Source: Azolla caroliniana (lineage: Eukaryota; Plantae; Polypodiophyta). From it: a DNA stretch of 64,000 nucleotides. Position numbers and translations under genes: made by a program. The stretch lies in contig JBHGNT010000016.1 of the NCBI GenBank assembly GCA_043228905.1, forward strand, positions 15,500,001-15,564,000, given 5' to 3'. The notes beneath the pieces were generated by a model, which saw nothing but the letters and a program-made list of their open reading frames with translations, was not told the origin of the DNA and searched no databases. Positions within the stretch are counted from its first letter, which is position 1; each line of letters begins with the position of its first letter. This document shows, piece by piece, positions 5,601 to 64,000 of the stretch.

Positions 5601-6401
5601 CATGAGGACCGCAATAAAGTAATACGCCAAGAAATATGGGAAATTTACACTCAGTGTAAATGGATCACCCCACTAGAGCCACTCCCATCTAAAATGTTGT
5701 ACTATAAGAAACACTTCATGCACTTCTCTAAGTTAGGTTTTATCACGCGGCCAAAATATCTAGATGTATTCTTACCACATGCACTAAGGGTTGCCATTGG
5801 ACAACTTAGAATATCATCTCACCAACTTGAGATTGAGAATGGTCGTACTAGTGGAGTCCCTAGGGAGGAAAGGATATGTAGGTTATGTCACATAGAGATA
5901 GAGGATGAGTACCACTTTACATGCAAGTGTCCAACCTATGCCGAGATAAGGGCAAAATACCAAGACATACTTGGTTCGTCTCCCACCCTCCCCAAACTAT
6001 TAGATACTCTAGATATAAAGAAATTAGGCAAATACATTCTAGAGCTAAAACAACACAAAGAGAATAAGTTACAAAATGTTGACAATAATGTTGCTAATGA
6101 TCACGAACATGTAACAAATGAAGTTTTTCAGGAACAGGAGGAGACAACGAATGCCGACACACTTGCACCACTCGGCCTTTCCATTGATGAGGCAGAAAAC
6201 CAGAGAAGAACCAGACATCCTCGGGTGCCGGGTTTCAAAGCAACTCAACGTGATGTGGAAGCAATATTGAAAATAAGGGAATGTGAGCTACACCGCCTAA
6301 AAGCCATGGCTAGGGCACTCTCTACATTGGAACCACGGGTCACACCCACATCAAGACCCTTTGACCCCCCACTTCTTTTCGAGAGGCTTGGGTGGAAATA
6401 A
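2698..6401 (+). pseudogene. LINE ORF2: AP endonuclease, RT and C-terminal CCHC, with several premature stops
   Basis: WNCN, FLVETH, GDFNART, STVDY; QAGFR, FVDFRKAFD, GVKQGCPLSP, LYADD; LRISSHQLEIENGR...CRLC...EDEYHFTCKC. Confidence 0.93.
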
Positions 6402-19101: not shown

Positions 19102-22100
19102 TTTCATGAACGAATATAATAGAGTAGGAACAAGCCGAAACTAAGAACTAGGAGAGAGAAAAAGAACAAGAACTTGACTTATGATTCCATAACTAGTGTT
19201 GTTCACCTTGATTAGAATCAAGGTGCACCTAAGTATTTATACAAGAAGGTAGATGTATGTATGCTAGCTAGGAGTATAGAATGCATGAAGATGCATGCAA
19301 GCTAGGAATAGAGAATGCATGAGGATGCATGCAAGCTAGGAACTTCCAATGTTCAATCTACCATACATGAAGTTGGATTTTATACAAGGAGGCATAGATG
19401 GATGTGGCTTAGTTGGTAGGGTTTCCCAATGGAGACCAAGAGTTCTTGACATTATTCTCCCCCTAAGGCCACGGCCGGCTTCAGTGGATACCGTTGATGA
19501 AAATCGTGAATGGCTTCGAGAGGATTTTGTAAATATGTAACTGGTTCCCACGTGGCATCCAAAATGGGGTAACCTTTCCATAAGACCAAATATTAAAGTC
19601 GTCGTCGCCGCAAGCGGGAGTCAAGGATCTAGTGAACCTCATACTCCTCCCTTGTCAAATAATTCCACGGGTGGTGGAGGAGGAGGTTGTTGTCCCGAAA
19701 TTCGAGAAGGATGGTATACTTCAAGCAGAGAGATGTGGAAAACATTGTGAATCTGGAAAGTTGGGGGAAGCACTAACTAGAATGTGACTGGGTTGATTTT
19801 CTCGATGATACAAAAGGAACCTAGCTTTTTGTAGTCTAGCTTCGCGCAAGGACGAGTGGTCGTGATGTGGCGGCGTAGCAACCAAACCATGTCACCGACT
19901 GCAAAGGTCGGCGCGGCCAAGCGATGACAGTTAGTGTGATCCTTATATTGTTTACCAGTGACACAGAGCTCAAGGGAGAGTTCACGATGGACATCTTGTA
20001 AAGTGCGGGCACACATCTCTGTCGACGGATTGACGGAAATCGTGCTAGGATGTCGGTAGCGAATGGGTTTGACATGGTGGCCTGGGCGATTTCGTTGAGC
20101 AAGGAATCATCATGCAGAATGTATGTTACAAACATTTGGAGTTGATCAGGCCGAAGTAAACAATGTGATTGTTGTGAATACACGTCGTCACCTGGGCGTA
20201 GCGCAAAATCCGGTCGCCAAGAGAGGGCATCCTCTTTCCCATGTTGAACGTCAGGTCGAAACAAGATTTTGAAGTCGTAGACAACGAGAAAAGATGACCA
20301 ACGATCCTGACTCCAATTCAACGTATGACTGGTGGTGAAGAAGATAAGATTCTTGTGGTCGGTCAGCACTTGGATACGATGTTGAGCCCCAACGAGATAG
20401 GGTCGCCATTCGGCGAAGGCAGATATGATAGCTGCAAGCTCCTTGTCGTAGACTGGATAATTGATTTCTGGGGCTATAAACTTCTGGGAGTAGAAGGCAA
20501 CCGGATGTAGTGTGTCGTCGTCATCTGGTTGGGACAGAACCACGCCAATGGCGAAGTCGAATGCATCTGTTTCAACCTGGAAGGGTCTCTTGGGGTCTAG
20601 GTGAACCAACACTAGGGCTGAGAGAAAAGTTGCTTTGAGGGTCTCAAAAGCATTGTGTGTTGCAGGGCTCTAGAGAAATGGAGTATCTTTTCGTGTAAGT
20701 TGGATAAGAGGTTGCACAAGGGAAGAAAACCACCCATCTATAAATCTTCTATAGAAATTTGCAAACCTAAGAAATGATTGTACCTCTTTCAAGCGAGTCA
20801 GGAGAGGCCAATCGGTGATTGCTGCCACCTTGTGCTTATCCATTGTGATCCCAGTGGGTGAGATCATGTAACTCAGGAATTCGACAGACGTTCGATCGAA
20901 TTCACACTTCTCACTTTTGGCGTAAGGCCCATATTCCCAAAGTTTGGTTAGAACCAGTTAGACATGTTGTATGTGCTCCTCTAAGTTGGAAGAAAAAACT
21001 AGGATGTCGTCAAGGTAGATTACCATGAAGTGATCGAGGTACTCTCGAAATATATCGTTCATCATGTGTTGGAAGACTGATGGGGCATTGGTAAGGCTGA
21101 AAGGCATCACCTTGTACTCGAAATGCCCATAGCACGTCCAAAAGGTTGTTTTCCACTCGTCGCTAGGCCCCGCGGGTCGATTTTGGAGAAGATACGCCCA
21201 GTTCAGAGTTGATCGAGGAGCGCTATAATTAAGGGCAAGGGATAATGATTACTCACCGTAACTTTGTTGAGACCCCCCGATAATCCACACATAAAATTGG
21301 GGCCCTGGCCAGTGAATTGGAAGGTTGAATAAAGCCCTTCACGAGGTTGTCAGCCAGATATGTGCATAGAGCCTCAAGTTCGGGTTCCGCTAGCCCATAG
21401 ATCGGCGCGAATGGTGAATGCTCATCCGCTTGGATTTTGATTGGGCAATCGTAGGGTGATGTGCCGGTAACCGATCTGCATTGCGCTTCTCGAATATATC
21501 CAAAAAAGTTGTTATATCGTGCAGGCAAATTGTTGACAAAACGGCTAGTGTAGCAACCAAGCTAGAATTGGCCGCATCGGAATTACGAGAATGTACTGAC
21601 CCAACCAGAATAGTCGCACCAAAAAAGTGATGGAGCGATTGCACCAATCCCCTATCGGATTGTGTCTCTCCAACCAAGATAACCCCAAAACAATCGGATG
21701 CCGGGGGGTTACGATGAGGTAGAAGGTTAGGACCTCATGGTGGGGCCCGACTTGAAGTACCAACAGGATAGTAACTTCTGTAACCGCCCTCGAAGAAAGA
21801 ACCCGATTGTTGATCGCTTCAATAGATATGGGTTGTGAGGTGTGGATGGTGGGGATATTATGTGCATGGACAAACGATATATCGATAAAACAAGTGGATT
21901 CTACGAAGTCAAGCAAAGCATGTGAGTGTATTGATGTCAACCCAAAACAAAAACTTACTTGCAAAGAAACCCTCCTAATGGTGGAACGAACTTGTAGGAG
22001 CATGAAGAAGGTGGGTAACGGGAAGCGTCCAACGGCATGGCTCGTACTACAGCCAGACTTGGTCATTTTCCTGTTGTCAAGGAACCTCATCAAGTCGTGC

Positions 22101-23508
22101 ATGGTGGAATTGGTGTCAAGGGCCCCACACCGAGCAGTGGCGGATTACATGGCCAGGGTTACCAGAATAGAAACAGAGCCCATTGTCACGACGATGTTGG
22201 CGTTAGGCATCAGTTAGTGCTTGGAACCGAGCGTGGTCAATCTCCATCAGGGTATGGGAATCGACCTTCATTGTAGGATGAGTATCATTGGGTGATGGTA
22301 AGGTTGGAGTGGGGGGAGAAACTACGACATAGGCCCTGGCTATTGATGTGTTTCAGGAGGAAGATTGAAATCCGTGAATCCCACGTTCTTCCTGACAAAG
22401 TTCGAACAGATGATTATCACATTGGACAGCTTGGGAGATTACTTGAGACAACGATGTGGGCTTCGGAAAGTTCAAGACAAGAGTCTTGACATCGTTTCGG
22501 AGACCACGATGAAAATGGTCGCATAAAACTTGGTCATCCCAACTGACATCACAGGCAATCTAGCGGAACTCTGAAGCATAGACAGAGGCTGGACATGAGC
22601 CTTGTTGGAAGGAATGGAGCTTCGTGAGTGCCGTTTGTCGCTGGTCTGCCTCGCCGAATGCAGCTTCGAGATCAGCAAGGAAAGCGGTGATGTTTTTTAA
22701 GAGAGGGGATGAGGTCTCCACCAAGGGTACAAACCACACTTGGACCAGCCCGGAGAGAAGGGTGTTGATGAAACCAACCTGAGAAAATTCGTTGGCATAC
22801 CGTTGGGGCTGTAATCGGATGATCAACCAAATTTGATTGATGAAGCCGCGAAGATGCACCGTCGTGTCGTTGAATTTATCGGGTAGGCTAACGGTGGGTT
22901 CGAGGACATATGGATGGGAAGAGGAAGTGGTTGGGCCAAGTGCCGATGGTGGTTGTGGCTCGGCAGGTGGTGGGTTTCTTGATGTGACAGATTGAAACTC
23001 TTGTAGTGATTCCCGAAGGATTTCATTTTCGAGTTGAAGTTGTTGCAAGGCTGCCATTACTTGGTTTAGCTTGTCAACAGATTCAGACATGGTAACAATA
23101 TGAGGAAGGTGAACAAACTGTCACAGACGAATATAATAGAGTAGGAACAAGACGAGACTAAGAACTAGGAGAGAGAAAAAGAACAATAACTTGACTTATG
23201 ATTCCATAATTGGTGTTGTTCACCTTGATTAGAATCAAGGTGCACCTAAGTATTTATACAAGAAGGTAGAGGTGTGTATGCTAGCTAGGAATAGAGAATG
23301 CATGAAGATGCATGCAAGCTAGGAATAGAGAATGCATGAGGATGCATGCAAGCTAGGAACTTCCAATGTTCAATCTACCATACATGAAGTTGGATTTTAT
23401 ATAAAAATACATAGATGGATATGGCTTAGTTGGTAGGGTTCAATGAAAACCAAGAGGCCTTGGGTTCAATCCTTACCTTCCACCGTGGTGTGGCATATGT
23501 CTATGACA
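19102..23508 (-). mobile_element. Tcn1-like chromovirus A, decayed, integrase core deleted
   Basis: LTRs 19102-19451 and 23119-23508; TSD GATTT/GACTT; PPT at 19452-65; gag from 23090; PR, RT (YLDD ~21010), RH (VETDAFDFAIG), chromodomain remnant ~19500-19650; deletion junction ~20040. Confidence 0.9.
23416..23484 (+). promoter_or_regulatory. tRNA-like A box/B box module in the 5' LTR of chromovirus A
   Basis: TGGCTTAGTTGG 23422-33 and GGTTCAATCC 23463-72. Confidence 0.65.
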
Positions 23509-24354
23509 GACTTGGTTTAAGTGGGATCGTCCTCGATTCTGCTCAGATCGCCGACCATTGTCTTTCCTCTTGATTGACCAACAGTCGAAAACATTGTGAC
23601 CGGCTTTTTTGTAATGGGTGCAAAATTCGCCTGATCGATTGGTCCTCGACTTCGACCACTATCAGTCTCCCCTCGTTCTTGATCGATTGGTATTCCAAAC
23701 GGTTTTGTCGGCTTGTTTTTTCAATCTACTCGATCGACTGGTGGGCTTCTGCCGATTCGTCGATGGTGAGTCCCATCGATTTTCGCTGAATATCCTTGGT
23801 GAGGACTTGGCCAATCGTCTCATCTAGATTTAGGATCAGACAGCTATTGGCAAATGTCATGCAGAATACCTCCCAACTCGCCGGCAAGCTCGATAGGAGG
23901 GCAAGGGCTTCAACTTCTTCTTCAAAGTTTATCCCTTGGGAGGAGAGCTCAAACAACACCTGGCTAAAGGTGTTGATGTGGGAGGTTGTAGGATCCAACT
24001 CTCTCATCTTCATATTGAATAGTTGTCGAATCAATATGAGTTTTGACGAGGAGGACTTCTTTCGCACACCGCTTGCAACTTCTCCCATAACGAGAAAGTT
24101 GTCGTCTCTAACAATCAACAAACAGTTCAGTTTGAACCGAACCGAAGCACGAAACCACGGCTTAACGGTTTAGCGGTTCGGTTTCGGTTCAGGTTTGGAT
24201 TTTCATAAACGGTTCGGTTCGGTTTCGGTTTGGTTCGGAGGGGGGGGGGGGGGGGGGCCAACAGTTCGGTTCAGTTCGAGCCCTCATCAATTTAACAATT
24301 TCGGTTAAAACGGTTTGAAAACTGTGGTTTAAACCATTTGAAACGACTTAACGG

Positions 24355-25012
24355 TGTCGTGAAGAAAACCGCCCACAAGAGGAATCGGAGGAACAAGGCG
24401 TGGGAAACGGCTCTGCACACACGCGCGCCAAGAAGTACATACGAGGATCCTAGGTGGGTAGATTCGGGGGTATGCAGTTAATGCCAAACGGCCTCTTGAC
24501 GGGCTATAAAAGGAAGAGGAAGAATAGAAGTGGGGATCTCGCGCGGAGAGGACGAAGTGCTGCCGGACCGTTTCTGGGCGTTTCTCTCTCTCTCTCTCTG
24601 TGTTTCCTTGCTTCTGGAGCTCCATAGCTTCTGTGCAGGGTTCTGAGGAGGCTCGCGCTGTTTCGAGGAACGCCCGAGTGCTTCCGGCAGCACCTCCGAC
24701 CTGCTACCCCGTTTGTGTTTCGAAGCGAACAGGCATCGGCATCTGTTCGCCGGCCTGTTCGGTTGTAAACAACCTGTGCCCCATCGAGGGTTGTAGTCGT
24801 GTTAGCCGTTCTTGTTAATACACTTATTTAGTCATTCGCATCTGTCTGTGTCGGTGTCTGTTCGCGTTCTCCGTGCTGAAGGGCCGTGTCCCTGCGTATC
24901 CCCGGTCCTGCGTAGCCGGTTCTCTCTCTTTCTCCTCCCTTGCTTGCTCTTTGGTTCGAGACCCCCGCGGTCCCGCCTCATTTTCACACGCACTTGCGTA
25001 ATTATCTCGACA
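24355..25012 (+). repeat. 5' LTR of Gypsy copy 1
   Basis: TGTCG...CGACA; TATAAAA at ~24505. Confidence 0.97.
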
Positions 25013-25016
25013 TCTT

Positions 25017-25034
25017 TGGTGAACCCGACGTGAA
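25017..25034 (+). promoter_or_regulatory. Primer-binding site complementary to tRNA-Trp
   Basis: TGGTGAACCCGACGTGAA is the reverse complement of the plant tRNA-Trp 3' end (TTCACGTCGGGTTCACCA, from memory). Confidence 0.85.
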
Positions 25035-25056
25035 AGAGGCGGCAGAAGAGCAGGAA

Positions 25057-27183
25057 ATGAGAGGGTCGGATCTCGCAGAGGCCATGGCTTCGGCCGTGGA
25101 TCGGATTGTAAACGCGCGCGAGAGCACCGGTGCCCTCGACAGAGCTATTGAGGCAGTCGTCGGCACGATCGGCCGGTTCGATGGGAAGGATGCCACGAAG
25201 TATTTGGCGTCCTACGGTGCAGAGATGCTGATGCGGGACATTCCGGAAGAAAGGCGTCTGGCCGGATTTCCCCGAGTAGCGATGCCGAGCATCCATGCGG
25301 AGGTGCTCGAGGTGCGGACGGAGAGCCGTACCTGGGAGGAGTTCGAAGGCCGGCTCCTAGAGAAATACGGGCAGGACGACGCGCTCCGGCTTTCGAAGCG
25401 AAGCTTTATGGAATGGGTGGAGTCCCCGGGAAAGGGAAGAAACGCGTCGGCGCTCCTCCGGGAGTTCGAGGAGAACTTCGCACGTCTTTCGGCGCTTGAC
25501 AGGATGATCCTGGATACAAGCCGGGTCCTGCTGTTCGTCAAATCGGTTGACGAGAGGGATCGGAGTCACGTGGGCGCCCTGCTAGAAACCGAAGACGGGC
25601 TCACTACCGACTGGGCGGCTGTCAGGAAGGTCTGTGGCCGTTTCGACAAACGGCGAGAATGGGCGGATGACGGTGCGACCGGGTCGGGCTCGGTCGCAGC
25701 AAGGAAGTTCGAACCAGCGCCACGGGTGCGAAAGGAAGGGACCGGAGAGTGGTTGGAAACCGGTTCGGCTTCGACCGGCGTAGTCACAGGCTCAACCGGA
25801 GGAGCGACGCTGGAGGAATTGACGAAGGCGATAAAGGACCTCCAAATCGCGCAGGCCCGAAGGGAAGGAGGCGAACCGGCTCGTGACCGACGGCCGGCGG
25901 CAGGAAACAGGTGCATGTGGTGCGATGAAGTCGGCCACATTCGGAAGGACTGCGGCGACTTCGCGGAGGCGCTGAGGAACAGGGTGGTGTACCTGTGGGA
26001 AGGACGGGTGCATGCCAGCGACACCCGAAGGACCCTGAGCCGAAACGACGGAAAAGGTGGTATGAAAAGGTTGATGGAAGAGGCGGCGGCCCGGCACGCG
26101 GAAACCGTCCACTACTCGGCGTCGGCCGGCATTCGAGTCGGGGGCGGCGAGGCCCGAAAGGAAAGCAAAGCCGGATTCTGGCCGACGATGCTGGAAGGCC
26201 TTGCCGGTGCAAGGCTTAAAAGGGAGGAATCGGACCGTGCGGAGAAACGGGTACGGGAGATGACCGGGTGGAGCGACCCGGTCGAGGAAAAGACGGGCTT
26301 CGTGGAAGCCGCTTGCCGGAACTACGAGGCTCTAGTAGAAGAGAAGCGGGTGGGGAAACCCGGGGCGACCGGGCCCTCACAACGATACGAGACCCGGTCC
26401 GGGTCACGACGGGACGAAGCCGGCGGGGCCGGTACGCAAGATAAACCCCAGAAGGGTGGATACCGTCTGGGGACGGAGATAGAAAGAACCACGGACTTAC
26501 GAAAGGTCCTGGAGGAACGGATCCTCGACAGCAAGGTGGAGCTGTCGCTACGGGAGGTGCTGGGAATCGCCAAGAAGGAGTTCCACGACTCCATCGTGGA
26601 CTTGGTGAAACGGAAGAGGCTGTCAACGGAGACAGAACCGGAAAGACCGGTGGAAGTGCGGACGACGCACCTAGACGACATGGCGCTGGGAGACGAGTGG
26701 GCGGAAAGCCACTATTCGAGACCACATTGGGCCCGAGCGACCACGGAAACCCCGGTGAAGATCGGCGATGTCCAGGAACCGGTGGTAGCTTTAGTAGACC
26801 ACGGATCGGAGATCAATTTGATGTCCATGGACTTCTATAAGAAGGGCAAATGGCCGATCAACACCAAGCACGGGTGGAAAATAAGGGCAGCAACGCGCAC
26901 CACCGAGGAACTGCACGGGGCCTGTCCGAATGTGCGAGTCAAGATCGGCGATGTCGAGATTGACCAGCACTTCTTCGTGCAGGAGACGTCTTCGCATCCG
27001 GTCATACTGGGAGAGCCGTACATCACGGCGGCGCGAATGGAGACCAAGGTGCTGGACAACGGTTCGGCCTATGCGCGGGTCAAGAGCCAGGACGGGCGCC
27101 ATTCGGTCCAGTTTTTGACGGTCAGGCCGAACCACGAGCGTAACCGCGACTCCCTCGGTTCCGATAACCGAGAGGATTTTTAG
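25057..27183 (+). CDS. gag: Gag-protease polyprotein
   Basis: First ATG after the PBS; zinc knuckle CMWCDEVGHIRKDC; aspartic protease LVDHGSEINLM ... VILGEPY. Confidence 0.93.
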   Translation: MRGSDLAEAMASAVDRIVNARESTGALDRAIEAVVGTIGRFDGKDATKYLASYGAEMLMRDIPEERRLAGFPRVAMPSIHAEVLEVRTESRTWEEFEGRLLEKYGQDDALRLSKRSFMEWVESPGKGRNASALLREFEENFARLSALDRMILDTSRVLLFVKSVDERDRSHVGALLETEDGLTTDWAAVRKVCGRFDKRREWADDGATGSGSVAARKFEPAPRVRKEGTGEWLETGSASTGVVTGSTGGATLEELTKAIKDLQIAQARREGGEPARDRRPAAGNRCMWCDEVGHIRKDCGDFAEALRNRVVYLWEGRVHASDTRRTLSRNDGKGGMKRLMEEAAARHAETVHYSASAGIRVGGGEARKESKAGFWPTMLEGLAGARLKREESDRAEKRVREMTGWSDPVEEKTGFVEAACRNYEALVEEKRVGKPGATGPSQRYETRSGSRRDEAGGAGTQDKPQKGGYRLGTEIERTTDLRKVLEERILDSKVELSLREVLGIAKKEFHDSIVDLVKRKRLSTETEPERPVEVRTTHLDDMALGDEWAESHYSRPHWARATTETPVKIGDVQEPVVALVDHGSEINLMSMDFYKKGKWPINTKHGWKIRAATRTTEELHGACPNVRVKIGDVEIDQHFFVQETSSHPVILGEPYITAARMETKVLDNGSAYARVKSQDGRHSVQFLTVRPNHERNRDSLGSDNREDF

Positions 27184-30100
27184 AGAGGACTGCCAAGGCG
27201 TGGGGCCGCGACAGTCCGGATGCTCCGGGAAAACCCCACATTTGTACGATAAAACCGTGTACGACAGGTAGGGTATTTTGCTTCTCCGACAGCGGAGCGT
27301 GTACGATAGTCGGCATCGGCGGCCGAGAGAAGACAAAGGCGGAGGGGAGACTTCGAGCGTGCGGAGTTCTCGGCCCTGACGAGGAAATCAGCGGAGCCGT
27401 GGAGGCGGTCTCATTCGACGACACCTTGGGGACGCTGGGAAAGGTGGTCGAAGAAGGCCTTAACGAAGACCGGACGATACCGGTGTGTTCCGAGGAGATG
27501 TACGGAGTCATCATGGACTTCGGTCGAGGACTCGAGTCAGTTCGGACGGCCCGCGTAAGCACCAAGTACAAGACTGTGGACCGGAAGGTAAGGCCAGTCG
27601 CGGCACCCTTACCGGAGGACAGCGCGTCGAGAATCAAAGGGGTTGCATCGGACCCTAGTCTACGAGATCCGGCCTGCATAGGGCACACCTTCACCGACGA
27701 GACGCTCCGAGAGCTCAAAATAGGTGGGGGCGGGTTCCTACTGCCGGCGGAGGAAGACCGGTTTCGGAGAATGCTCGGAAGGCACGGGAAAGCCTTCGCA
27801 TTCTCGCCGGAGGAAATCGGGTGCGTTGACCCGACGATCGTGGAGCCAATGGTGATATTCACGGTACCGCATGTACCATGGAATCTCAAGCCAATCCCGG
27901 TTCCGAGAGCTCACATCCCGAAGTTGATGGAGCTGCTGAGGCAGAAAGTTGATATGGGAATTCTTGAGCCGTCGAGCGCCCCATATTCGAATCGATGGTT
28001 TACCGTACCGAAGAAAAACGGTTCGTTGCGCTTCATCCAGGACCTGCAGCCGATCAATCGAGTGACCATTCGGAACGCAGGGATCGGACCGACCATAGAC
28101 GAGTTCGCGGAGGCCTTCGCCGGAAGGTCAATTTACTCGGTCGGGGATCTATACTCAGGGTACGACCAGTTCCAGCTAGCCGTGGAGAGCAGAGACATTA
28201 CGACGATGCGAACTCCCCTCGGCCTAGTTCGGATGTGTACACTGCCGCAAGGAGGGACCAACTCGGTGGCCCACATGGTGAATGCGATGAACAAGGTTCT
28301 GAGGGACTGTATCCCGGACATCACCATGCCGTTTCTGGATGACATCCCGATCAAGGGATGCCCGGTGGAAGAAAAGGACGAGACGATCGGGCCGGACGGA
28401 TGCCGGCGATTCGTGGCGACGCACATCGACGACTGCGAGAAGGTGCTGCAAAGGCTAGAGGATGCGAGACTCACCTTCTCCGGGGAGAAGTCGGCCTTCG
28501 GGCAGTCAGAAATCATGGTGGTCGGACACCTGTGCGGACCATATGGCCGGAAACCGTCTCCGGCAAAGGTAGAAGCCATCTCCGCGATGAAGCCCGACTG
28601 CAGCTCGGTCACGGAAGTACGGAGATTTCTGGGGGCATGCGCGTTCTACCACATATGGATCCCGCATTACGCGCACGTCGCGGAGCCACTGTACGGGTTG
28701 CTGAGAAGGGGGCGAAGTTTCGAATGGCTGGACGAGCACGCGGAGTCGGTCCGAAAGCTGAAAGAGGCCCTTGCAGCGGCACCGGCACTCCGGAAGGCGG
28801 TATACGGGAAGGGCACCCCGGTATTCATAACGGTGGATACCAGTCCGACCGGGATCGGATGGGTCGTGAACCAGGAAGACGAGGACGGCAATCGGTTTCC
28901 GATCCGATTCGGCGCGAAAGTCCTCAGTGAACGACAGCGAGGATACGCCCAGGTTAAACGCGAACTCTGGGGTATTGTTTCGGCGGTTAAGGCCGACAAA
29001 GATTACCTGATAGGGACAGAAGTGATCATCGAGACGGATTGCCTGCCGATTCTCGGTATGGTTTCCGGATGCGCGACCCCGGACCTGGCGATGCTCAGGT
29101 GGATAGCGTACATCAAGTCCCTGGACCCGGAAATACGACACATTTCCGGGAAAGACAACGCCATGGCCGACATGCTTTCGAGGGCGAGGTTCGACGACGA
29201 GGGCGGCATGGTTTCGGAAGACGAAGAAGTCGGCGTGGATTTCTTCGAGGCGGCATACATAACGACCGACGGGATGAGCACTCCGGCGCTTAACGAGTTC
29301 GACGCGAGCAAGTACGACGGGGAGTGGCTGCAGATCGGCGGGTTTTTGAAGACAATGATGCCCGATGCGTCATGGACGAAGGACGAGGCCAACCGGATCC
29401 GGAAGAAAGCATATCGATTCTTTCTCCGAGATGGGAATTTGTGGAAGCACCCGAAGAAGAGGAACGGCGTCCCGCTCCGGGTGGTGGCGATGAAGGAAGA
29501 ACAGGAGGAGCTACTGGCGGCCCACCACGACAGCCCTTGGGCTGGACACCGTGGAACGTGGGCGACTTTTGAGAAGCTGAAGGGGAAGTACTGGTGGCCG
29601 GGATTGTACCGGGACGTGCATCGGTTCGTGTCAACTTGCGAGAGTTGTCAGATGCACTCGATAGTCCGACACCGGGACGGGCTTCGCCCTACGTACCCTC
29701 CGACTATCCACTTCAAATGGATGGTAGATCTGGTGACGATGCCGATGGGGGTAGGACAGATGCGGTATCTGGTCCTAGCACGGGAAGACCTGACGAACCA
29801 GGTGGAAGGCCGAGCTCTTCAGAACAAGACGACCGCGGCCGTGTGTCGGTTCCTAATCGAGGACGTGATATGCCGGTACGGGTGCGTCGGGAAGATCGTG
29901 GCTGACCGAGGGGAGTTGGACGCCGAAGAAGCCGCGGAGCTATTCGACCGGCTGGGGGTCAAGCTCTCGCTCACCACTGCGTACAATCCGGAGGCGAATG
30001 GAAAGGTGGAGCGCGGACACGGACCGATCGTCAAAGCGTTGGTTCGGGCATGCGGAGGCCGAATCGGTGACTGGCCGCGGCTCCTACCTTATGCTTTGTG

Positions 30101-30662
30101 GGCAGACCGGACCACGCACAGTTCGGTAACCGGGTACATGCCGACAGAGCTCATGTTCGGCCAGAAGCCGATCATGCCGATTGAACGGACGATCTCCTCG
30201 TGGGCAACGGTCGACTGGAGGGACGAGATGAGCCGGGAGGAGTTGTTGGCCGCGCGTATACGACAGCTCGAGCGGAGACCGGAGGACGTGGCACTGGCTA
30301 CGGAGAAGCTCCGGGTGGCGAGGACAAAGAACAAAGCCCGGTTCGACCGATCGCACCGGCTACGACCGAAGAAAATCGACGAAGGTGACTGGGTGCTCGT
30401 CTACGACAGCAGCCTCGACAACCAGCACCGAGCAACGCGGAAGTTCGCACAGAGATGGTTCGGGCCGTACACGGTACAGAGCGCCAACGACAACGGGACG
30501 TATCATCTGGCGGAACTCGACGGTACGAGAATAGTGATACCCGTGGCCGGGAAGAGGATCAAAGCTTTCAAGAAGCGGCACGACGACGAACCCGACCCGA
30601 TTCTCCTGGACAGCAGCGACGACCGATCCGAGGCCGAGAAAGGGCCGGCAGGCGAAGAGTAA
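27180..30662 (+). CDS. pol: Pol (RT-RNase H-integrase) in the -1 frame, probably reached by ribosomal frameshift
   Basis: Open from the slippery site; LPQG, PFLDD, VDTS, HHCC, DDE core, GPY/F motif; no chromodomain. Confidence 0.95.
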   Translation, partial: LERTAKAWGRDSPDAPGKPHICTIKPCTTGRVFCFSDSGACTIVGIGGREKTKAEGRLRACGVLGPDEEISGAVEAVSFDDTLGTLGKVVEEGLNEDRTIPVCSEEMYGVIMDFGRGLESVRTARVSTKYKTVDRKVRPVAAPLPEDSASRIKGVASDPSLRDPACIGHTFTDETLRELKIGGGGFLLPAEEDRFRRMLGRHGKAFAFSPEEIGCVDPTIVEPMVIFTVPHVPWNLKPIPVPRAHIPKLMELLRQKVDMGILEPSSAPYSNRWFTVPKKNGSLRFIQDLQPINRVTIRNAGIGPTIDEFAEAFAGRSIYSVGDLYSGYDQFQLAVESRDITTMRTPLGLVRMCTLPQGGTNSVAHMVNAMNKVLRDCIPDITMPFLDDIPIKGCPVEEKDETIGPDGCRRFVATHIDDCEKVLQRLEDARLTFSGEKSAFGQSEIMVVGHLCGPYGRKPSPAKVEAISAMKPDCSSVTEVRRFLGACAFYHIWIPHYAHVAEPLYGLLRRGRSFEWLDEHAESVRKLKEALAAAPALRKAVYGKGTPVFITVDTSPTGIGWVVNQEDEDGNRFPIRFGAKVLSERQRGYAQVKRELWGIVSAVKADKDYLIGTEVIIETDCLPILGMVSGCATPDLAMLRWIAYIKSLDPEIRHISGKDNAMADMLSRARFDDEGGMVSEDEEVGVDFFEAAYITTDGMSTPALNEFDASKYDGEWLQIGGFLKTMMPDASWTKDEANRIRKKAYRFFLRDGNLWKHPKKRNGVPLRVVAMKEEQEELLAAHHDSPWAGHRGTWATFEKLKGKYWWPGLYRDVHRFVSTCESCQMHSIVRHRDGLRPTYPPTIHFKWMVDLVTMPMGVGQMRYLVLAREDLTNQVEGRALQNKTTAAVCRFLIEDVICRYGCVGKIVADRGELDAEEAAELFDRLGVKLSLTTAYNPEANGKVERGHGPIVKALVRACGGRIGDWPRLLPYALWADRTTHSSVTGYMPTELMFGQKPIMPIERTISSWATVDWRDEMSREELLAARIRQLERRPEDVALATEKLRVARTKNKARFDRSHRLRPKKIDEGDWVLVYDSSLDNQHRATRKFAQRWFGPYTVQSANDNGTYHLAELDGTRIVIPVAGKRIKAFKKRHDDEPDPILLDSSDDRSEAEKGPAGEE

Positions 30663-30734
30663 AGGCGGGCCGGTTTTCTCCGTGCCAACTTAATTTGGCG
30701 CATACCGGTGGATGCGCGGTTAGGTGGGGGCGGA

Positions 30735-31392
30735 TGTCGTGAAGAAAACCGCCCACAAGAGGAATCGGAGGAACAAGGCGTGGGAAACGGCTCTGCACAC
30801 ACGCGCGCCAAGAAGTACATACGAGGATCCTAGGTGGGTAGATTCGGGGGTATGCAGTTAATGCCAAACGGCCTCTTGACGGGCTATAAAAGGAAGAGGA
30901 AGAATAGAAGTGGGGATCTCGCGCGGAGAGGACGAAGTGCTGCCGGACCGTTTCTGGGCGTTTCTCTCTCTCTCTCTCTGTGTTTCCTTGCTTCTGGAGC
31001 TCCATAGCTTCTGTGCAGGGTTCTGAGGAGGCTCGCGCTGTTTCGAGGAACGCCCGAGTGCTTCCGGCAGCACCTCCGACCTGCTACCCCGTTTGTGTTT
31101 CGAAGCGAACAGGCATCGGCATCTGTTCGCCGGCCTGTTCGGTTGTAAACAACCTGTGCCCCATCGAGGGTTGTAGTCGTGTTAGCCGTTCTTGTTAATA
31201 CACTTATTTAGTCATTCGCATCTGTCTGTGTCGGTGTCTGTTCGCGTTCTCCGTGTTGAAGGGCCGTGTCCCTGCGTATCCCCGGTCCTGCGTAGCCGGT
31301 TCTCTCTCTTTCTCCTCCCTTGCTTGCTCTTTGGTTCGAGACCCCCGCGGTCCCGCCTCATTTTCACACGCACTTGCGTAATTATCTCGACA
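30735..31392 (+). repeat. 3' LTR of Gypsy copy 1
   Basis: Direct repeat of 24355-25012. Confidence 0.97.
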
Positions 31393-34823: not shown

Positions 34824-36711
34824 TGTCAAAGTTAATATGCGAAAGCGTATGACAAACTGGCTCAGCCAGATACCAACAAAACGTAGAGAGAAGGTTTAAT
34901 AGAGAATGCATGGGAGAGATAGAGACAGCAGAACATAAAAACTCAATTCAAAATGATAATACACTACGTGTACATAGAATGTGCTCATAGAGCACTTTTA
35001 TACAAGTCGATAAAGGACTGACAAGTACTTCAATGCTCATACGAGCGACTAACACTGACTCCCAAAATTATGCCTATGTACTAGGCTAGATCCGTAGGCC
35101 TCTAACGGCCTACCGGTTGCAATCCAATCTTGCTCTCTGATTTGGCTCCTGGTTCTAGATACCATCCGAACACCGATCCGGCTCTCCGTTCCAGATACCG
35201 ATCCGGATCCAATTGAGCTTGCTCGCTCAACACTCCCCCTCAAGCTCAACTTGAGGTCAGATCGTGATCTTAGTGTCTACAATAGCCGGTCCTTTCCTCT
35301 GGCTTCTTCTCACGTCTTCCCGCCTTGCTCGCGCTCCTCGTCTAGTCTAGTTCCGCTTCCCACGACCTGCCCAATTCTGCGCACCTCGACCTCCTTGGTT
35401 GGCTTGTTAGCTCAACAGGCCCATCTCAGTGCCTTCGATGTTGTGACTCCGACGCTTATCGACCCATCGGTTCCTCCGTATCGGTGTCGACTTCCGTTGC
35501 CTTCTTGTCCACTTGGCCTTAAGTTGATCCGGCTCCTCCGAATCAAATTGTTGAACCGAATCGGCTCTTGTCTGAGTTGGTAGTTTCCAACTCGTCTTCC
35601 GTTTTCAAGCCCTTCACCACATCGGACCACGTCCAGGTCTTGGCCTTCTTCCGATCGGCTCTATGGTTGCTTGCTCAAATTTGTTCGGATGTGCCGAGTC
35701 CTTCGATCGGCTCGGCTTCCTTTTTCTGCTCATCTCCCCCTTTGGTTCTTTCTTCCTCTCCAGCTCCTTGTCCGGTGCCATCCGTTCTCCCCCTCAAGTG
35801 CGGCATGTCGAGATGTTGTAGACCAAGCATCTCTGAAAAGTGTTGCAACTTGTCCGATCCGAGCGGCTTGGTGAAGATGTCGGAAACCTGCCGATCCGTG
35901 TAAACATACCGAAATTCAACTTCACTGCTCAGGACCCGCTCACAAACAAAGTGATAATGCACTTCTATGTGCTTTGTCCGAGCATGGAATATAGGGTTCT
36001 TGGCGAGCTGTATGATGCTTACATTGTTGCAAGAAATCAGGATCGGGGTCGGTACCTCGATCTCATAGTTTTGCAGTAGTCGTTGAAGCCAGGTGGCAAT
36101 GGTAGGGCCCTGATATTCAGCCTCAATGCTCAATAGAGCCACTATTGACTGCTTTTTGTTGCTCCATGCAACAGTCACGCTACCAAGAGAAAACATGTAA
36201 CTAGAGGTGGATCGGCGATTTGATGCATCACCAGTCCAGTCGGCATCGGTATATCCGACTAGCTTCCTGGCTATACCATGTCGGTATAACAGTCCCCAAT
36301 CCTTCATGCCACTCACATATCACAATAGTCTATGTGCAATGAAGGTCCTCCACGGTTGTCAGGAACAGTACTAAGACAGAGAAGGAATTAGTACTAAAAG
36401 AAGTATTAGTACTAAGAGAGGTGAAGAACTCTCAAGAGAAGGAAAGAGTGAGTGAGAGGGTGGGAGAGAGAGATCGAGAGAGAGAGAGAGAGTGATGATA
36501 AGAAAAGATATATATTATGTGAAGAAAATGTACAGTAGCTAGGAGGCTTAAGACTGGCGTTGAACCGATTTGGTTCGAAATAATGCCTTGTGCCTCCTTT
36601 TATAGTGTTCTAAGGAATACTCCTGAAGTTTCTAGAATGTTCCAGAGAAATCTGGAATATACATCAATTTTCTATAATAAAACATAAATGAAAATAATAC
36701 TCTACGTATTA

Positions 36712-36782
36712 CAATGTATAGTTTAATGGTCAAGAGCTCGACCCATGTAGCATAAGGGCATGGGTTCGAGTCTTGCCATATC
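36712..36782 (+). promoter_or_regulatory. tRNA-like A box/B box module in the 3' LTR of chromovirus B
   Basis: TAGTTTAATGG 36719-29; GGTTCGAGTCT 36763-73; 44-nt spacing. Confidence 0.65.
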
Positions 36783-36788
36783 ATGACA

Positions 36789-39700
36789 CTATCCCCCCTT
36801 TAAAACGACGAGTGTAACGAGTCGTTTTGGATTGAGGACCTGGTTTTTCTGGATATTGACGATGGAAGTCTTCAAGAAGAGCACGAACATTGGTGACATA
36901 CTCTATCGGTTCCCAAGTACTCTCACTGGGACTATATCCTAGCCAATCGACTAGATAGTAGAGCTTGTTGCGAACAAGCTTGGAATCAAGGATGGCGGCA
37001 ACCTCGTACTCAGGTCCATCTTCAAGCTTGATCGGGGGTGGAGGCTGTGTAATACGTCCTAGGTTGTTGTTCTCTTGATAGGGTTCGAGGAGAGAACTAT
37101 GAAACACCAGATGTATCTGAAGTTGTGGAGGTAGATCAAGACGAAAAGCGACATCATTAATCTTTCCTATAATACGGAAAGGACCTAATCGCCGATAATC
37201 CAACTTCTCGCATGGGCGAGTAGTCTTGATGTGTCGTCGGAATAGCCATACCTGATCTCCAATGTAAAAACTAGATGGGAGTCAATGACGATCCGCATAA
37301 ACCTCTCCAAACGATCCTCTGCGCAAGGATGTGTGGACACCTCTGGGGTTTCAAGTACACACCACCGGGGGTGACATCCCGTATAAGCATAAAATGGCGT
37401 AACTTTAGTGGATGCGTGGATAGAGTTGTTATAGGCAAATTCGGCGAAGTGGAGAATATATGCCCAATCATCCTGATGATAGCTAAGAAAGCACCGCAGA
37501 TACTGCTCCAGCGTTTAATTGGTTTGTTCGGCTTGGCGGGCGGTTTGTGGGTGGTAGCCGGAGGAGAGGTTACAAGTGACCTTGAGCATGTTAAAAAGGT
37601 GCTTCCAGAATTTTGACACGAACTGGGGTCCACGGTCGCTGATGATACTATCGGGAAGTCCATGATGCCGACATACTTCATTCATGACAATTTCGGCAGT
37701 GTCTTCACTGGAGATCTCCTTAGTACATGGCAAGAAATGAGCCATCTTCGTATATCGATCGACCACCGTTAGAATCGCATTGAACCCCTTAGAGACTGGA
37801 AGATCTGTGATGAAGTCTAGAGCAATGGATTTCCACGGCTTGCTTGGAATTGGTAATGGTTCTAATAAACCATATGGATGATGCCTTGGCATTTTTGCTC
37901 TGCAGCATGTATCACAAGTCCGAACAAAATCCTCGACAAATTGTCGCATACAGGGCCACCAAAATGATCGTTGTACTAAATGTAATGTTTTAGTACTACC
38001 AAAATGCCCAGCTGTATATGTGCCATGACAGTTTTGTACTACTTGGAAGGCGGCAAGAACCATTAGGAACATACAAAAGTTCTTTAAAGAAGAGTAATCC
38101 ATCATGGTATTTGAATTGCCGATAGTCCGTACCTGTTGGTTGCGATTGTGAACACGACACTCGAGAGGGATCAATTTATGCTAGTATAGCTTGGGCGAAC
38201 ACATCTGTCTTCAAGTCTTCGCGTATGGTATCGATAACGCAGGAATCCATGGGCATGTCAAAGATCTGTGTTACTTGTAGTCGTGTCGGTCCCAAGATGA
38301 CTTGTTTTTGGTTATCGAAAGTTGGCTCACCGGGACGGAGTGCTAGATACGAACGTCGTGATAATGCATCTGCCTTCCCTTGGTGCTTCCCCGGACGATA
38401 TGTAATTTTGAAGTTGAAACGAATGAGGAAGTGGGCCCACCGAGCTTGACGTCGATTCAACACACGAGCATCCTGAAAGTAGGCAAGGTTCTTGTGGTCA
38501 CTAAATACGGTGACCGGATGAGAGGATCCCTCCAGAAAATGCCTCCATTGCATAAAAGAATCCACTATTGCCAATAGCTCCTTATCATGAATTTCATAGT
38601 TGATTTCGGCGGCATCAAACTTGCGTGAGTGAAAAACCACAGGATGTAGCTTCTCATCATTCCCTTGTTCTGACAAAATGCTCCCCAATGCAAAATCCGA
38701 TGCGTCAGCTTCGATAATGAATGGTTTTTCCGGATCGACATGAGCTAGAATCGGAGCCGATGTAAATGCCTTTTTAAGACCCTCGAAAGCCATGTCCGTT
38801 TCTTCAGACCAGATGAACGGTTGTCCCTTCCTGGTAAGTTGTGTGAGAGGTAGAACGATCTTTGAGTAATCTTGTATGAACTTCCGGTAAAAATTGGCAA
38901 AGCCTAGGAAGCATTGCACATCCCACACCGAACGCGGAGTCTGCCATTCTACCACCGTTTTGACCTTAGCTAGGTCCATGGAGATGCCTTCTGACAAAAT
39001 GATGTAGCCGAGAAATTCCACTTGGTTGCACCCGAAGCTACATTTTTCAAGCTTTGCATACAGACCATGTTCTTGAAGTCATTTTAGTACTAATAGTACA
39101 TGAGAATCATGTTCTTCTTGGGTCTTTGAATAAACCAGTAGATCATCCAAATAGATGATCAAACAATCATCCAATAGATCTCGGAATATATCATTAGCCA
39201 TGTGCTGGAAGACTGTCGGCGCATTAGTGAGGCCAAATGGCATGACCGTATACTCGAAGTGCCCATATCTGGTACGAAACGCGGTCTTCCATTCATCTCC
39301 TAGCCGGATCCATACGAGGTTATATGCTCCCCGTAAGTCGATCTTCGTGAAGAACCTGGCACCATTGATCCGTTCTAAAACACTTGAGATAAGGGGAAGA
39401 GCATACCTATTCCTGATTGTAACCTTATTCAGGCTACGGTAATCTACAACGAGACGAAGCGATCCATCCTCTTTCTTGACGAAGAAAATGGGCGCGCTGG
39501 CTGGAGATTTCGAATGCCGAATGAAACCATTTTCCAAATTCTCCTCTATATAGGCCCGAAGGACTTCCAGCTCGGTTGGTGACAAATTGTAGATTGGTCC
39601 CCATGGCGGCTCTTTTCCCGGTTGTAAATTGATGGGGCAATCGTATGGTCGCTGATGAGGAAGTGTGTTGGCTTGTACTTTATCGAACACATCGGCGTAA

Positions 39701-40311
39701 TGACGATACTTCTCAGGAAGTTGAACGGTGGATTCTTCTTTAATGGTGCTGGAGGGGTTTACTGATATTGCAAAGAGGAACATTTCCTCCTTGTGCCCTT
39801 CTTTACACAACTGACGTAGCGAAATGGTTGCCATCTTCTGAGTTGACCCTTGGGTTTGTCGACACCGGATTTATCTTGTTCTCCAATCTATGTCTGGGTT
39901 ATGTAACTCGAACCACGGTAATCCTAAAACTATAGGATGTTCTGGGATACTGATAATATTAAATGATACTACACATGCTAAGTTATCTAGGACAATATTA
40001 ATGGGCTCTGACTCTTCTATGATATTTCCGGAAGCAATGGGACGTCCATCAATGACTACTACAGAGGCTGGACACTAGCGTTTTCTTAGGGATATCTTAT
40101 GAGCTTGAGCAAATTTCTTATCCATAAAGCAAGAGTTAGCTCCGGAATCTAGGAGTGCTAGGACATATACTGGAGGGGTACTTTTAGTACTAGCTATTAC
40201 TTGGGCTACGAACACATCACTAACTTGCTTAGAGGGAATGGAACCACTAATGGGTTGCACAGATCTAGGGTTGTCCAACCAAACGGCTCCTATTTTGGCT
40301 GGACTTAGTCG
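36789..40311 (-). pseudogene. pol: pol of chromovirus B (PR-RT-RH-INT-chromodomain)
   Basis: LLDSGA, YLDD, EADASDFALG, DFITDLP/SDRGPQF, YEVAAILDSK...YLVDWLGY...TWEP; stops and frameshifts. Confidence 0.95.
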
Positions 40312-41456
40312 TTTAACTCTTCTTCTAACTGACTAAGGACATCAAATCTGTTCGCTAGATCTGGGCTATTAGTACTATTAGGACTATCAGATATCCCTAC
40401 TAAAATAGGCTCGGGTTTAGTACAATTAGAACTAGCGACTATTTGGTTTACCTGTCTTCTTGGCCTATGGGGACAATTGATTGCAATGTGTCCTGGACCA
40501 CCACAATAGAGACATAGTCGATTTGTTCGGCATCGCTGCTTTTCTTCTTCGGATAATGGTCCTCGACGACGTGTAGCGTCAATCTCCATCGGAGTCGGAG
40601 TATTCACTGGAGGCGCATTATAGTACTCCCTGGGTAAAGGTTTTGCTACCATTGAGGCGTAGGTGGGCTCTGATCTTGCCCTCGGCATCTGTAGCTGTCG
40701 TTCCGAACGTCGCTCAAAGAGGCGGTTATCACATCTTACCGCGCGACTGATTGCTTCTGTTAAGGACTTTGGCTCTTCAGGGAAAGTCAAGAGTAAATCC
40801 TTGACATCGTTGCGTAAACCATAACGAAATTGCTCCATCAGCGCTTGATCATCCCAAGGGATGTCAGCGGCAAGTAGATGGAAATCTGCAACATATGCAG
40901 AGGCTGGACGGTTTCCTTGGCGTAATCGCCAGATTTTGTTGATTGCGGTCCTTATGCTGTCAGTATCCCCAAAGCATGCTTTAAACTCACCTATAAATTC
41001 TTCAAAGTTGTTGAGTAATGGAGACTCTTTTTCCAACAGTGGAGCGAACCATGCCAACGCTGAGCCACTTAACAGCGTCCCTACTAAACCCACTCGTGAT
41101 GCATCGGTAGGATATCAGGAAGGATGCATTTGAATAACTAATCGTACCTGATTAAGGAACCCTCTAAACTGCGATCGTGTTCCATCGAACTTCGTGGGAA
41201 GGCCAATCTTGGGTTCCTTGTGAATCCCTTGTGTTCCGGGGCCTTGTTGTTGCATCACTACGATGGTTGCTTCGAGTTGTTGCACGCGTAATGTAAGTTC
41301 CCCATGTTGTTGTTGTGTTTGCTGCTTTTCTAAGGAGATTTGTTGAAGATCCCCCAGCAACCGTTGATTTTCTTGTTCCAAAGCAAGGAACTTCTCTTTT
41401 AGGCATTGAAACTCTGAGAAAACAGATTGATATTCCTGAGCGCTAACTGTGGCCAT
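40305..41456 (-). pseudogene. gag: gag of chromovirus B (one premature TGA at ~41115)
   Basis: Coiled coil, PTKFDGTRSQFRGF, LRQG, PTPMEID, CLYCGGPGHIAINC. Confidence 0.93.
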
Positions 41457-41652
41457 GGGATGAAAAGAAAAGAGAAATAAGTGATTAGTATGAAAGGAGA
41501 GAGACAGAAGGAAAAATTAGTTCAAACTGTCAGGAATAGTACTAAACAGAGATAGGATTAGTACTAAACAAAGAGAGAATTAGTACTAGAGAAGGGAAGT
41601 ACTATTAGAACTAAGGGGATGGGACTACGTAAGACTCCCGAGAGGAAGAGAA

Positions 41653-41690
<38 letters not shown>

Positions 41691-41868
41691 CGAGGACGAG
41701 AGATGATGATAACAGATTATATATTATAAGAAGAGTAACAAAAGGGTAGGAAAATCGGTTCAAATTGTCAGGAACAATACTAAGACAGAGAAGGAATTAG
41801 TACTAAAAGAAGTATTAGTACTAAGAGAGGTGAAGAACTCTCGAGAGAAGGAAAGAGTGAGTGAGAGG

Positions 41869-41904
<36 letters not shown>

Positions 41905-42120
41905 TGATAAGAAAAGATATATATTATGTGAAGAAAATGTACAGTAGCTAGGAGGCTTAAGACTGGCGTTGAACCGATTTGGTTCAAAATAATGCCTTGT
42001 GCCTCCTTTTATAGTGTTCTAAGGAATACTCCTGAAGTTTCTAGAATGTTCCAGAGAAATCTGGAATATACATCAATTTTCTATAATAAAACATAAATGA
42101 AAATAATATTCTACGTATTA

Positions 42121-42192
42121 CAATATATAGTTTAATGGTCAAGAGCTCGACCCATGTAGCGTAAGGTCATGGGTTCGAGTCTTGCCATATCA
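42121..42192 (+). promoter_or_regulatory. tRNA-like A box/B box module in the 5' LTR of chromovirus B
   Basis: TAGTTTAATGG 42128-38; GGTTCGAGTCT 42172-82. Confidence 0.65.
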
Positions 42193-42579
42193 TCACAACG
42201 GTCGGCTTCTACATAAACTGGTTGATCACTCTGACCGGATAACTGATGTTGGGTCGGGACTATTTCTTATTGCAGGCCGGTTCGGAGTCAGGACGTAGCT
42301 TCAGGTTCCGGTCCAGGGGGTGTGGACATCGGTCGGCATTCCGTCATGTTGAACTTGTACAACATATTCAGCACAGAATGACATTTGTGAGAGAAATATG
42401 CCGTCAGGGGTTTGGATCACCTCGATCCCAAGAAAATAATGAAGGTCCCCCAGGTCCTTCATTTCAAATGTGTCTAACAACTGGGACTTCACACGGCCGG
42501 TTTCATCGAGTACGGGTCCAATGATGACTACATCATCTACATATAGTACGATGAATAGTGAAGAGCCAGACTTTGAGGC

Positions 42580-56908: not shown

Positions 56909-57764
56909 TGTCGAGATATTACGCAAGTGCGTGTGAAAACGAGGCGGGACCGCGGGGGTCTCGAACCAAAGAGCAAGCAAGGGAGGAGAAAGAGAGAGAA
57001 CCGGCTACGCAGGACCGGGGATACGCAGGGACACGGCCCTTCAGCACGGAGAACGCGACAGACACCGACACAGACAGATGCGAATGACTAAATGTGTATA
57101 TTAACAAAAATGGCTAGCACGACTACAACCCTCGATGGGGCGCAGGTGGGTTACAACCGAACAGGCCGGCGAACAGATGCCGATGCCTGTTCGCTTCGAC
57201 GCACAAAAGGGGGGAGCAGGTCGGAGGTGCTGCCGGAAGCACTCAGGCGTTCCTCGAAACAGCGCGAGCCTCCTCGGAAGCCTGCACAGAAAGCTATGGA
57301 GCTCAAGAAGGAAGGAAAACAGAGAGAGAAGCGTCCAGAAACGGTCCGACAGCACTTCGTCCTCTCTGCGCGAGATCCCTGCAACAGCTCTTTCCTGCTC
57401 CTTATATAGGCCGTTGAGCAGGCCTTCGTCTCAGCTTTATTCCCTGTCCCTTTTGACAGGGATCTCCTCCGATCTTCCCGCATCCGCGTAGTTACGCCGC
57501 CGACTCGTACAGTTCGCGCGCGTGACCGAAAAGACTGTTCGCGCGGTCTTTGTCTCCCCTCGTGTTAGGGCCCGTTCCTGCCGATTATCCTCCTAATTCG
57601 ATTCTATGTACAACTTGGAGCGTGCGCGTGTGAAGAACCGGTTCCTACGCCTCGGTGCGCCGATTCCGCTTAGGGACGGTTTTCTTCACGACATCCGCCC
57701 CCACCTAACCGCGCATCCTCCGGTATGCGCCAAGAGAGTTGGGACGGAGAAAACCGGCCCGTCT

Positions 57765-63370: not shown

Positions 63371-64000
63371 CTTCTGCTCTTCTGCCGCCTCTTTCACGTC
63401 GGGTTCACCAAAGATGTCGAGATATTACGCAAGTGCGTGTGAAAACGAGGCGGGACCGCGGGGGTCTCGAACCAAAGAGCAAGCAAGGGAGGAGAAAGAG
63501 AGAGAACCGGCTACGCAGGACCGGGGATACGCAGGGACACGGCCCTTCAGCACGGAGAACGCGACAGACACCGACACAGACAGATGCGAATGACTAAATG
63601 TGTATATTAACAAAAATGGCTAGCACGACTACAACCCTCGATGGGGCGCAGGTGGGTTACAACCGAACAGGCCGGCGAACAGATGCCGATGCCTGTTCGC
63701 TTCGACGCACAAAAGGGGGGAGCAGGTCGGAGGTGCTGCCGGAAGCACTCAGGCGTTCCTCGAAACAGCGCGAGCCTCCTCGGAAGCCTGCACAGAAAGC
63801 TATGGAGCTCAAGAAGGAAGGAAAACAGAGAGAGAAGCGTCCAGAAACGGTCCGACAGCACTTCGTCCTCTCTGCGCGAGATCCCTGCAACAGCTCTTTC
63901 CTGCTCCTTATATAGGCCGTTGAGCAGGCCTTCGTCTCAGCTTTATTCCCTGTCCCTTTTGACAGGGATCTCCTCCGATCTTCCCGCATCCGCGTAGTTA

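Follow-up and report, generated by a model that had tools for sequence, protein, structure and literature searches.

An antisense tRNA-derived promoter module in the long terminal repeats of a chromovirus lineage present in Azolla, a candidate DNA site for TFIIIC and TFIIIB

A Ty3/gypsy chromovirus copy of about 5.8 kb lies at positions 36357–42197 (minus strand) of a 64,000-nt stretch of Azolla caroliniana DNA (contig JBHGNT010000016.1 of assembly GCA_043228905.1, forward-strand positions 15,500,001–15,564,000; hereafter the window). Both long terminal repeats (LTRs) of this focal copy carry a module resembling the A and B boxes of a tRNA gene promoter, close to the LTR 5′ end and facing outward, and comparison with related loci indicates that the module is real and under selection. 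The reading that appears likeliest, if still a tentative one, is that the lineage uses the module as a DNA site for the host factors TFIIIC and TFIIIB, which would keep the RNA polymerase II (Pol II) promoter of the LTR open. How chromodomain retrotransposons are active after insertion in silent chromatin is an open question, for which the module would provide a sharply defined cis-element; its predicted function is open to a simple test, as mutation of two short boxes should silence the LTR if the module acts as a barrier.

The first-pass annotation had placed the element at 36712–42192; its limits are instead set by the LTRs and the flanking target site duplication (TSD) ACGGT at 36352–36356 and 42198–42202. 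As to the boxes themselves, everything that annotation had described (A and B boxes at 44-nt spacing, 15 nt from the LTR 5′ end, antisense, in both LTRs) was located. In the 5′ LTR (41766–42197, minus strand; U3 about 42197–41981) the A box is found at 42128–42138 and the B box at 42172–42182, which leaves 15 nt to the LTR 5′ end; in the 3′ LTR (36357–36788, minus strand) they occupy 36719–36729 and 36763–36773, and in each LTR the two box starts are 44 nt apart. Since the boxes read on the plus strand and the element on the minus strand, the module is antisense to the element. It fully fits the A- and B-box consensus at tRNA-like spacing, and the strict pattern occurs three times in the window (twice in the focal copy and once at 23422–23472, see below), compared with a mean of 0.19 and a maximum of 1 in 100 block shuffles. 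Two further parts accompany the boxes on the plus strand: a block corresponding to tRNA variable-loop positions 44–48 (42164–42168), conserved beyond the textbook boxes, and an AT-rich stretch upstream of the A box (42086–42120), the presumed seat of TFIIIB. The two LTRs, about 432 nt each, show 11 differences over a 433-nt comparison; none falls within the boxes, which means little as only about 0.6 would be expected there.

ARAGORN and Rfam do not call a tRNA on the focal module. Its 17-nt variable-loop/T-arm word, when sought in viral contigs, nevertheless falls inside an ARAGORN tRNA in 77 of 87 matches, and a profile built from LTR modules only also matches tRNA genes that were not chosen by this word (for example, L024 8648–8707, E 4.6e-6). 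Because the word falls in tRNA genes and the LTR-trained profile finds such genes, these matches identify the module as derived from a tRNA, in agreement with the tRNA-like origin proposed at first. The parts retained match the plant short interspersed element (SINE) promoter cores RVTGG and GTTCRA (PMC7315354). No RNA data set is among the listed matches. In run X18, whose RNA nature is a guess, two contigs match the module region (42118–42188) at a depth of about 3, which gives no evidence on expression. One of them is 116 nt long (depth 2.8) with overlapping first and last 30 nt; it can be closed to an 86-nt cycle that spans the module, starting about 18 nt ahead of tRNA position 1 and stopping 7 nt past C61. 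This cycle, unlisted in three DNA runs, may represent a circular RNA, a tandem copy in the DNA or an error.

Relatives of the element were chosen by the integrase end and chromodomain, not by the module, and 78 loci were retained from 363 confirmed stretches; 13 of the 78 had no usable LTR start and were dropped. Of 58 near loci (47–89% protein identity), 46 show a match of the module profile at the LTR that lies behind the chromodomain (16 of these 46 had served to train the profile), as against none of 20 distant loci (48–54% protein identity). The module is thus present in most members of the lineage, as predicted; given its absence from all 20 distant loci, self-priming-type chromodomain elements do not generally share it. 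Five of the 12 near-locus misses are contigs that stop short of the module, the others being interrupted, rearranged or damaged. The same division between near and distant loci emerges from a motif score that does not depend on the profile, a score of at least 13 being reached in 0.25% of shuffles. In a quick tree of 49 rows (LG+G4, with support from the Shimodaira–Hasegawa-like approximate likelihood ratio test, SH-aLRT, only) 24 near loci and the focal copy, 25 rows in all, form one branch (SH-aLRT 99), outside which lie the distant loci and a second family of the window (19102–23509). The tree contains no Tcn1-labelled reference, so that the fit of the focal element to Tcn1 is one of features.

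For family statistics, 36 sequences (35 loci of depth at least 6 plus the window copy) were dereplicated at 80% to 19 families, 16 of them with the module; across the first 130 nt of the LTR the mean identity of the 19 is 57%. In their MAFFT alignment, which includes the three module-less families, the mean majority of the 12 box columns is 0.89 versus 0.62 for 120 other U3 columns, which bears out the earlier expectation that the boxes are more conserved than neighbouring U3. Among the 16 module families, pairwise identity is 0.87 for the A-box core (T8, A14, R15, T16, G18 and G19) and 0.82 for the variable-loop block (positions 44–48); it is 0.40 at positions 9–13, 0.49 at the free B-box positions 57, 59 and 60, 0.36 at positions 62–72, 0.38 in the spacer and 0.39 upstream, the figure for fourfold codon sites being 0.42 (60 of 120 family pairs). 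The spacing of the boxes is 44 nt in 13 families and 43 nt in 3, and mostly 44–45 nt in genuine tRNA matches; the distance from C61 to the LTR edge ranges from 18 to 63 nt across module families and that from the A box to the TATA box from 113 to 174 nt in seven elements. The 35 nt upstream of the A box are 81% AT, versus 66% for the adjoining 70 nt of U3, and 12 of 14 families show an excess in this direction. In the focal family, A-box variants listed at 5% or more lie on positions 9–12, and among those listed none is at position 8 or 13–19; the variable-loop region (42162–42169) has no variant of at least 5% in the three DNA runs. CpG decay appears asymmetric in the 16 families (G57>A 4, C56>T 0), a comparison that is circular for C56, where L110 among the 19 unselected families has T.

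These data bear on the idea that the module is a neutral passenger, a tRNA or SINE head that once fell into an ancestral LTR. Decay of the boxes is indeed seen in single low-depth copies; yet box columns stay at about 0.9 while the spacer has become as variable as fourfold codon sites, and the spacing is constant within 1 nt while neighbouring distances differ by tens of nucleotides. Judged from the alignments, this idea is largely refuted by the conservation data and must be regarded as extremely improbable.

Features that a tRNA or another RNA product would be expected to show are not kept. The pairing of the T, acceptor, anticodon and D stems of the module is 0.62, 0.36, 0.49 and 0.55, versus 0.95, 0.82, 0.89 and 0.84 in 53 tRNA-type hits; a cloverleaf in the module was rejected (46% of pairs, as in shuffles, 46%), and an RNAalifold consensus fold of the modules was empty on both strands. 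No shared terminator was found in the 16 families, the first run of four T residues (T4) past the B box being 12 nt to more than 250 nt away, or absent (in this survey L109 was anchored 7 nt off), and T4 within the spacer occurs in two of the 16, about the shuffle level (0.18). For the B box of the focal 3′ LTR, the first T4 downstream is at 36825, past the polypurine tract (PPT; 36789–36801, minus strand), which would give an antisense RNA of about 113 nt spanning the PPT. Directly before the PPT (36802–36830, and in loci such as L084, L101, L119 and L140) the word ACTCGT recurs in a short, conserved block resembling a hairpin, which is present in the module-bearing branch as well as in some module-less distant loci.

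The module might be a working RNA polymerase III (Pol III) promoter with a meaningful product, an antisense RNA from the 3′ LTR covering the PPT, the hairpin that precedes it and the chromodomain, which would likely dampen the element's own replication or feed small-RNA control. That both boxes are retained together with their tRNA-like spacing and the AT-rich stretch upstream is in keeping with this, as are the constant orientation and the RNA predicted for the focal copy; the terminator position, by contrast, is not shared and T4 interrupts the spacer in two families, no fold is conserved, and the transcript of the 5′ LTR would be random flank. On balance the sequence evidence makes a functional product of this kind unlikely.

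Alternatively, the module may act in the genomic RNA, where base pairing between U3 and either the self-primer or a host tRNA (its D and T arms) could aid strand transfer or dimerisation. Sequence complementary to tRNA is present in the 3′-LTR RNA of Ty3 (the 3′ half of its bipartite primer site) and of HIV-1 (the tRNA-like tract in U3); those elements use a tRNA primer and match a single tRNA, unlike the focal lineage, which primes itself and shows fixed spacing and conservation of the consensus type. Orientation and position just past the PPT would suit such pairing, the conserved blocks span positions 14–23 and 44–58, and tRNA complementarity in the 3′ LTR has been noted for Tyl3 in the accessible part of PMC5014426. 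Against this, the lineage primes itself; covariation between self-primer and U3 box was considered and rejected (cognate duplexes averaging −6.7, non-cognate ones −8.3 kcal/mol, seven elements); no bias towards wobble is seen among the substitutions (20 cells for G>A plus T>C, and 20 for A>G plus C>T); positions 49–51 and 59–60 vary freely; and two separate duplexes would need no rigid spacing. RNA-level pairing with tRNA is therefore disfavoured, and rather improbable.

What is kept are the consensus positions, at rigid spacing, while the N positions are free and an RNA shape is absent, which suggests that DNA is read here by a protein complex. Such a pattern agrees with a TFIIIC/TFIIIB DNA site under selection, rather than with a passenger or a tRNA product, and to judge from the boxes TFIIIC probably binds the module. 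The favoured TFIIIC/TFIIIB reading would involve a single capture from a tRNA gene, or from the head of a tRNA-derived SINE, in the ancestor of the lineage, after which the module would have been copied into both LTRs via U3. TFIIIC would sit on the boxes and TFIIIB on the AT-rich stretch, which lies from the module towards the Pol II TATA box 113–174 nt away; any Pol III would run outward and thereby, in the 5′ LTR, move away from the promoter of the element. The gain, the least certain step, would be a barrier or a nucleosome-free region rather than an RNA. A barrier or open region, of the kind that fission-yeast tRNA genes (tDNAs) provide, is the likeliest gain because the module stands at the edge of U3 and because the chromodomain suggests silent targets.

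In fission yeast, A box, B box and an AT-rich upstream part are likewise found beside silent chromatin, and tDNA barriers need the A box and the upstream TATA and work in either orientation, as described in the accessible part of PMC2040200; by analogy, the focal module likely works like these tDNA/B-box barriers. The yeast barriers differ in being fixed host loci, mostly true tRNA genes (PMC2040200, same part), while the focal module, a putative barrier, is mobile and unstructured. Somewhat less assured, although still a fair conjecture from the sequence pattern, is that a tRNA promoter has been domesticated as a portable insulator, whereby, in a lineage that seeks heterochromatin, each copy's TFIIIC/TFIIIB site would shield its LTR from the silent chromatin around the insertion and, by spreading, seed plant genomes with very many outward-facing Pol III sites; it would be implied that these genomes contain mobile TFIIIC sites in large numbers. 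In the DNA runs of organisms A, B and C, 3,400–5,900 contigs per run match the focal LTR, which makes this a very abundant family.

That abundance could also favour the proposal that the module serves others than the element, either as a Pol III landing pad for retroelements that target tRNA genes or as a chromatin-organising TFIIIC site of the host. This would give replicating lineages no reason to retain the boxes, though; the contig ends listed show no pile-up upstream of the A box, and distant lineages are without the module, all of which makes the proposal very unlikely.

Several points weigh against a TFIIIC/TFIIIB site kept for its barrier effect. As the 20 distant loci show, related chromodomain lineages do without the module, which is therefore unnecessary for chromovirus life generally, and in three of the 19 families (L110, L124 and L145) it is absent or damaged. 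G10 of the A box is present in five of the 16 families and C61 in 12, the other core positions in 15–16, so that some modules would be weak promoters, whereas positions 20–23 and 44–48 are conserved past the textbook boxes with no obvious need on the part of a TFIIIC site. The identity of the B core is circular, the 16 families having been chosen by it, and the within-family variant listing does not reach the B box, which is near a contig end. Most near loci apparently come from one set of assemblies, and the families are related, so that counts are not independent events. Finally, a barrier alone leaves the constant antisense orientation unexplained, because the fission-yeast barriers work either way (PMC2040200, as far as its accessible text goes); by pointing outward, the module may keep Pol III traffic off the Pol II promoter; alternatively, its orientation may mean that antisense RNA from the 3′ LTR matters.

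Among the closest known systems are Helenus and Cassandra. According to the accessible text of Kojima 2024 (PMC10886601), Helenus/TRIMp3 elements are non-coding, 311–1263 bp long and tRNA-primed, and their module is thought to drive their own transcription; fungal Helenus are tied to Copia and animal Helenus to tRNA-primed Gypsy, and the autonomous partners, which have little LTR sequence in common with them, are argued to use Pol II. The same text mentions that “not a few” Repbase LTRs resemble part of a tRNA, the analysis being limited to short TRIMs (miniature retrotransposons with terminal repeats). Helenus and the focal lineage share tRNA-derived A and B boxes in both LTRs, conservation of these boxes and the lack of a working tRNA; the focal lineage differs, as far as that text goes, in coding for gag and pol (5.8 kb), in self-priming, in a TATA-type promoter and in the outward, antisense orientation of its module. 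Tiny non-coding TRIMs would thus no longer be the only bearers of tRNA-promoter LTRs, which would extend to coding elements in the opposite orientation. An earlier suggestion that elements such as this one were the source of Helenus-like LTRs found no support: Helenus-1_SMo, the sole plant Helenus in the same source, carries the tRNA-like part in the sense direction, and its internal region begins with a tRNA-type primer binding site (PBS). Cassandra, also a plant element with a small-RNA gene promoter in its LTRs, differs in that this is of the 5S type, in sense orientation, and transcribes a non-autonomous element (PMC10886601, in part). Also close are the plant Tcn1 chromoviruses of the Tf1/Sushi group, which, like the focal element, prime themselves, have an aromatic cage in the chromodomain and are close to elements of fungi and vertebrates. 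The seed-free plant setting is presumably shared too, as suggested by a Phygy-like element with an NCGN target site in the window and by matches in plant and leaf metagenomes; the tRNA-like U3 module does not figure in the accessible parts of their descriptions (PMC6317226, PMC2864245), and distant loci of this type are without it. No description of an antisense, lineage-wide tRNA promoter in the LTRs of autonomous plant elements was found in the literature searched, which left out subscription papers and Repbase and covered the Helenus supplement by two terms.

The remaining architecture of the focal copy is that of a chromovirus. In the 5′ LTR a TATA box (42008–42013, minus strand; LTR position 185, about 115 nt inward from the A box) predicts a Pol II promoter, and 33 nt past it, at LTR position 218, lies the predicted RNA 5′ end (41969–41980, minus strand), 12 nt of which are complementary to a PBS at 41752–41763 (minus strand), 2 nt past the LTR; the self-priming proposed at first is borne out by this match. 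The arrangement is common to 10 related loci, with 10–12 nt of complementarity, and at least four forms of the self-primer exist in the lineage. The self-primer region of the focal copy forms an inverted repeat with the 7 nt preceding the predicted RNA start, and part of it (41966–41975, minus strand) reads as a sense B-box consensus, likewise in L087, L092, L096 and L123; such B-box-like self-primers occur in two different registers among families and have no A box upstream.

The largest open piece of gag (PF03732, PF19259) is at 40308–41114 (minus strand), and pol (36786–40197, minus strand) has the Ty3/gypsy chromovirus order of protease, reverse transcriptase (RT), RNase H and integrase, followed by an SH3 domain and a C-terminal chromodomain. 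The latter, announced by the first reading, is confirmed by a PF00385 match (E 1.5e-13) at 36859–37008 (minus strand; residues 92–141 of the translated segment 37281–36786). Its aromatic cage appears in the translation as Y, W and Y, at positions presumably corresponding to those of HP1. The term autonomous holds for the lineage, which codes for gag and pol, but not for the focal copy, in which pol is interrupted by stops and two frame changes: aligned to the closest relative, P0001 (83% over residues 1–717), it requires three frames and has six stops, tallied over slightly overlapping pieces, so that this copy is dead. The closest named proteins are fungal (57% and 53%) and vertebrate ones (45–52%), with a grass element at 43%; for a homologue, the ESM Atlas shows generic fungal/vertebrate Gypsy likeness only, and no relative was found in viral contigs.

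The focal copy is nested inside a Copia element, as judged by flanking Copia homology, and across the window Copia, LINE and Gypsy elements are nested in one another. Two other families had been credited with equivalent modules, which is partly borne out: one of them has a full module, in one LTR. The element at 19102–23509 (minus strand), a second self-priming chromovirus family and sister to P0119 in the tree, has complete A and B boxes in its 5′ LTR (23422–23472, plus strand, antisense; 41-nt spacing, different sequence); its 3′ LTR is without about 43 nt, B box included, that the 5′ LTR has. With an E value of only 0.28 against the lineage profile, this module may represent a separate capture, which one copy cannot decide. 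The element at 8018–10650 (plus strand) has mainly a B box: together with the variable-loop block, this lies at 10271–10309 (minus strand, antisense; profile E 2e-4) in one LTR, the 3′ LTR, where no A box was found at 42–46 nt from the B box. It is non-coding, with interior tandem repeats of 45–54 nt, a TSD (GTTTC) and a PPT; it also has the self-priming signature, a lineage-like RNA start and LTRs that are 87% identical. It is probably a non-autonomous derivative.

At about 1880–6400 (plus strand) lies a decayed LINE-like element (RT match), with a B-like box, without A box, on the minus strand at 1843. Two young Phygy-like elements, 24355–31392 (plus strand) and 56909–64000 (minus strand), have open reading frames and LTRs that are 99.8% and 100% identical over the aligned part. 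In both, a B-like box in sense orientation lies some 58 nt ahead of the LTR 3′ end; that of 24355–31392 was considered as an equivalent module and rejected for want of an A box. Both also have a tRNA-type PBS akin to the Rfam RSV PBS model and a 4-nt NCGN target site, which is a Phygy feature according to the accessible text of PMC6317226.

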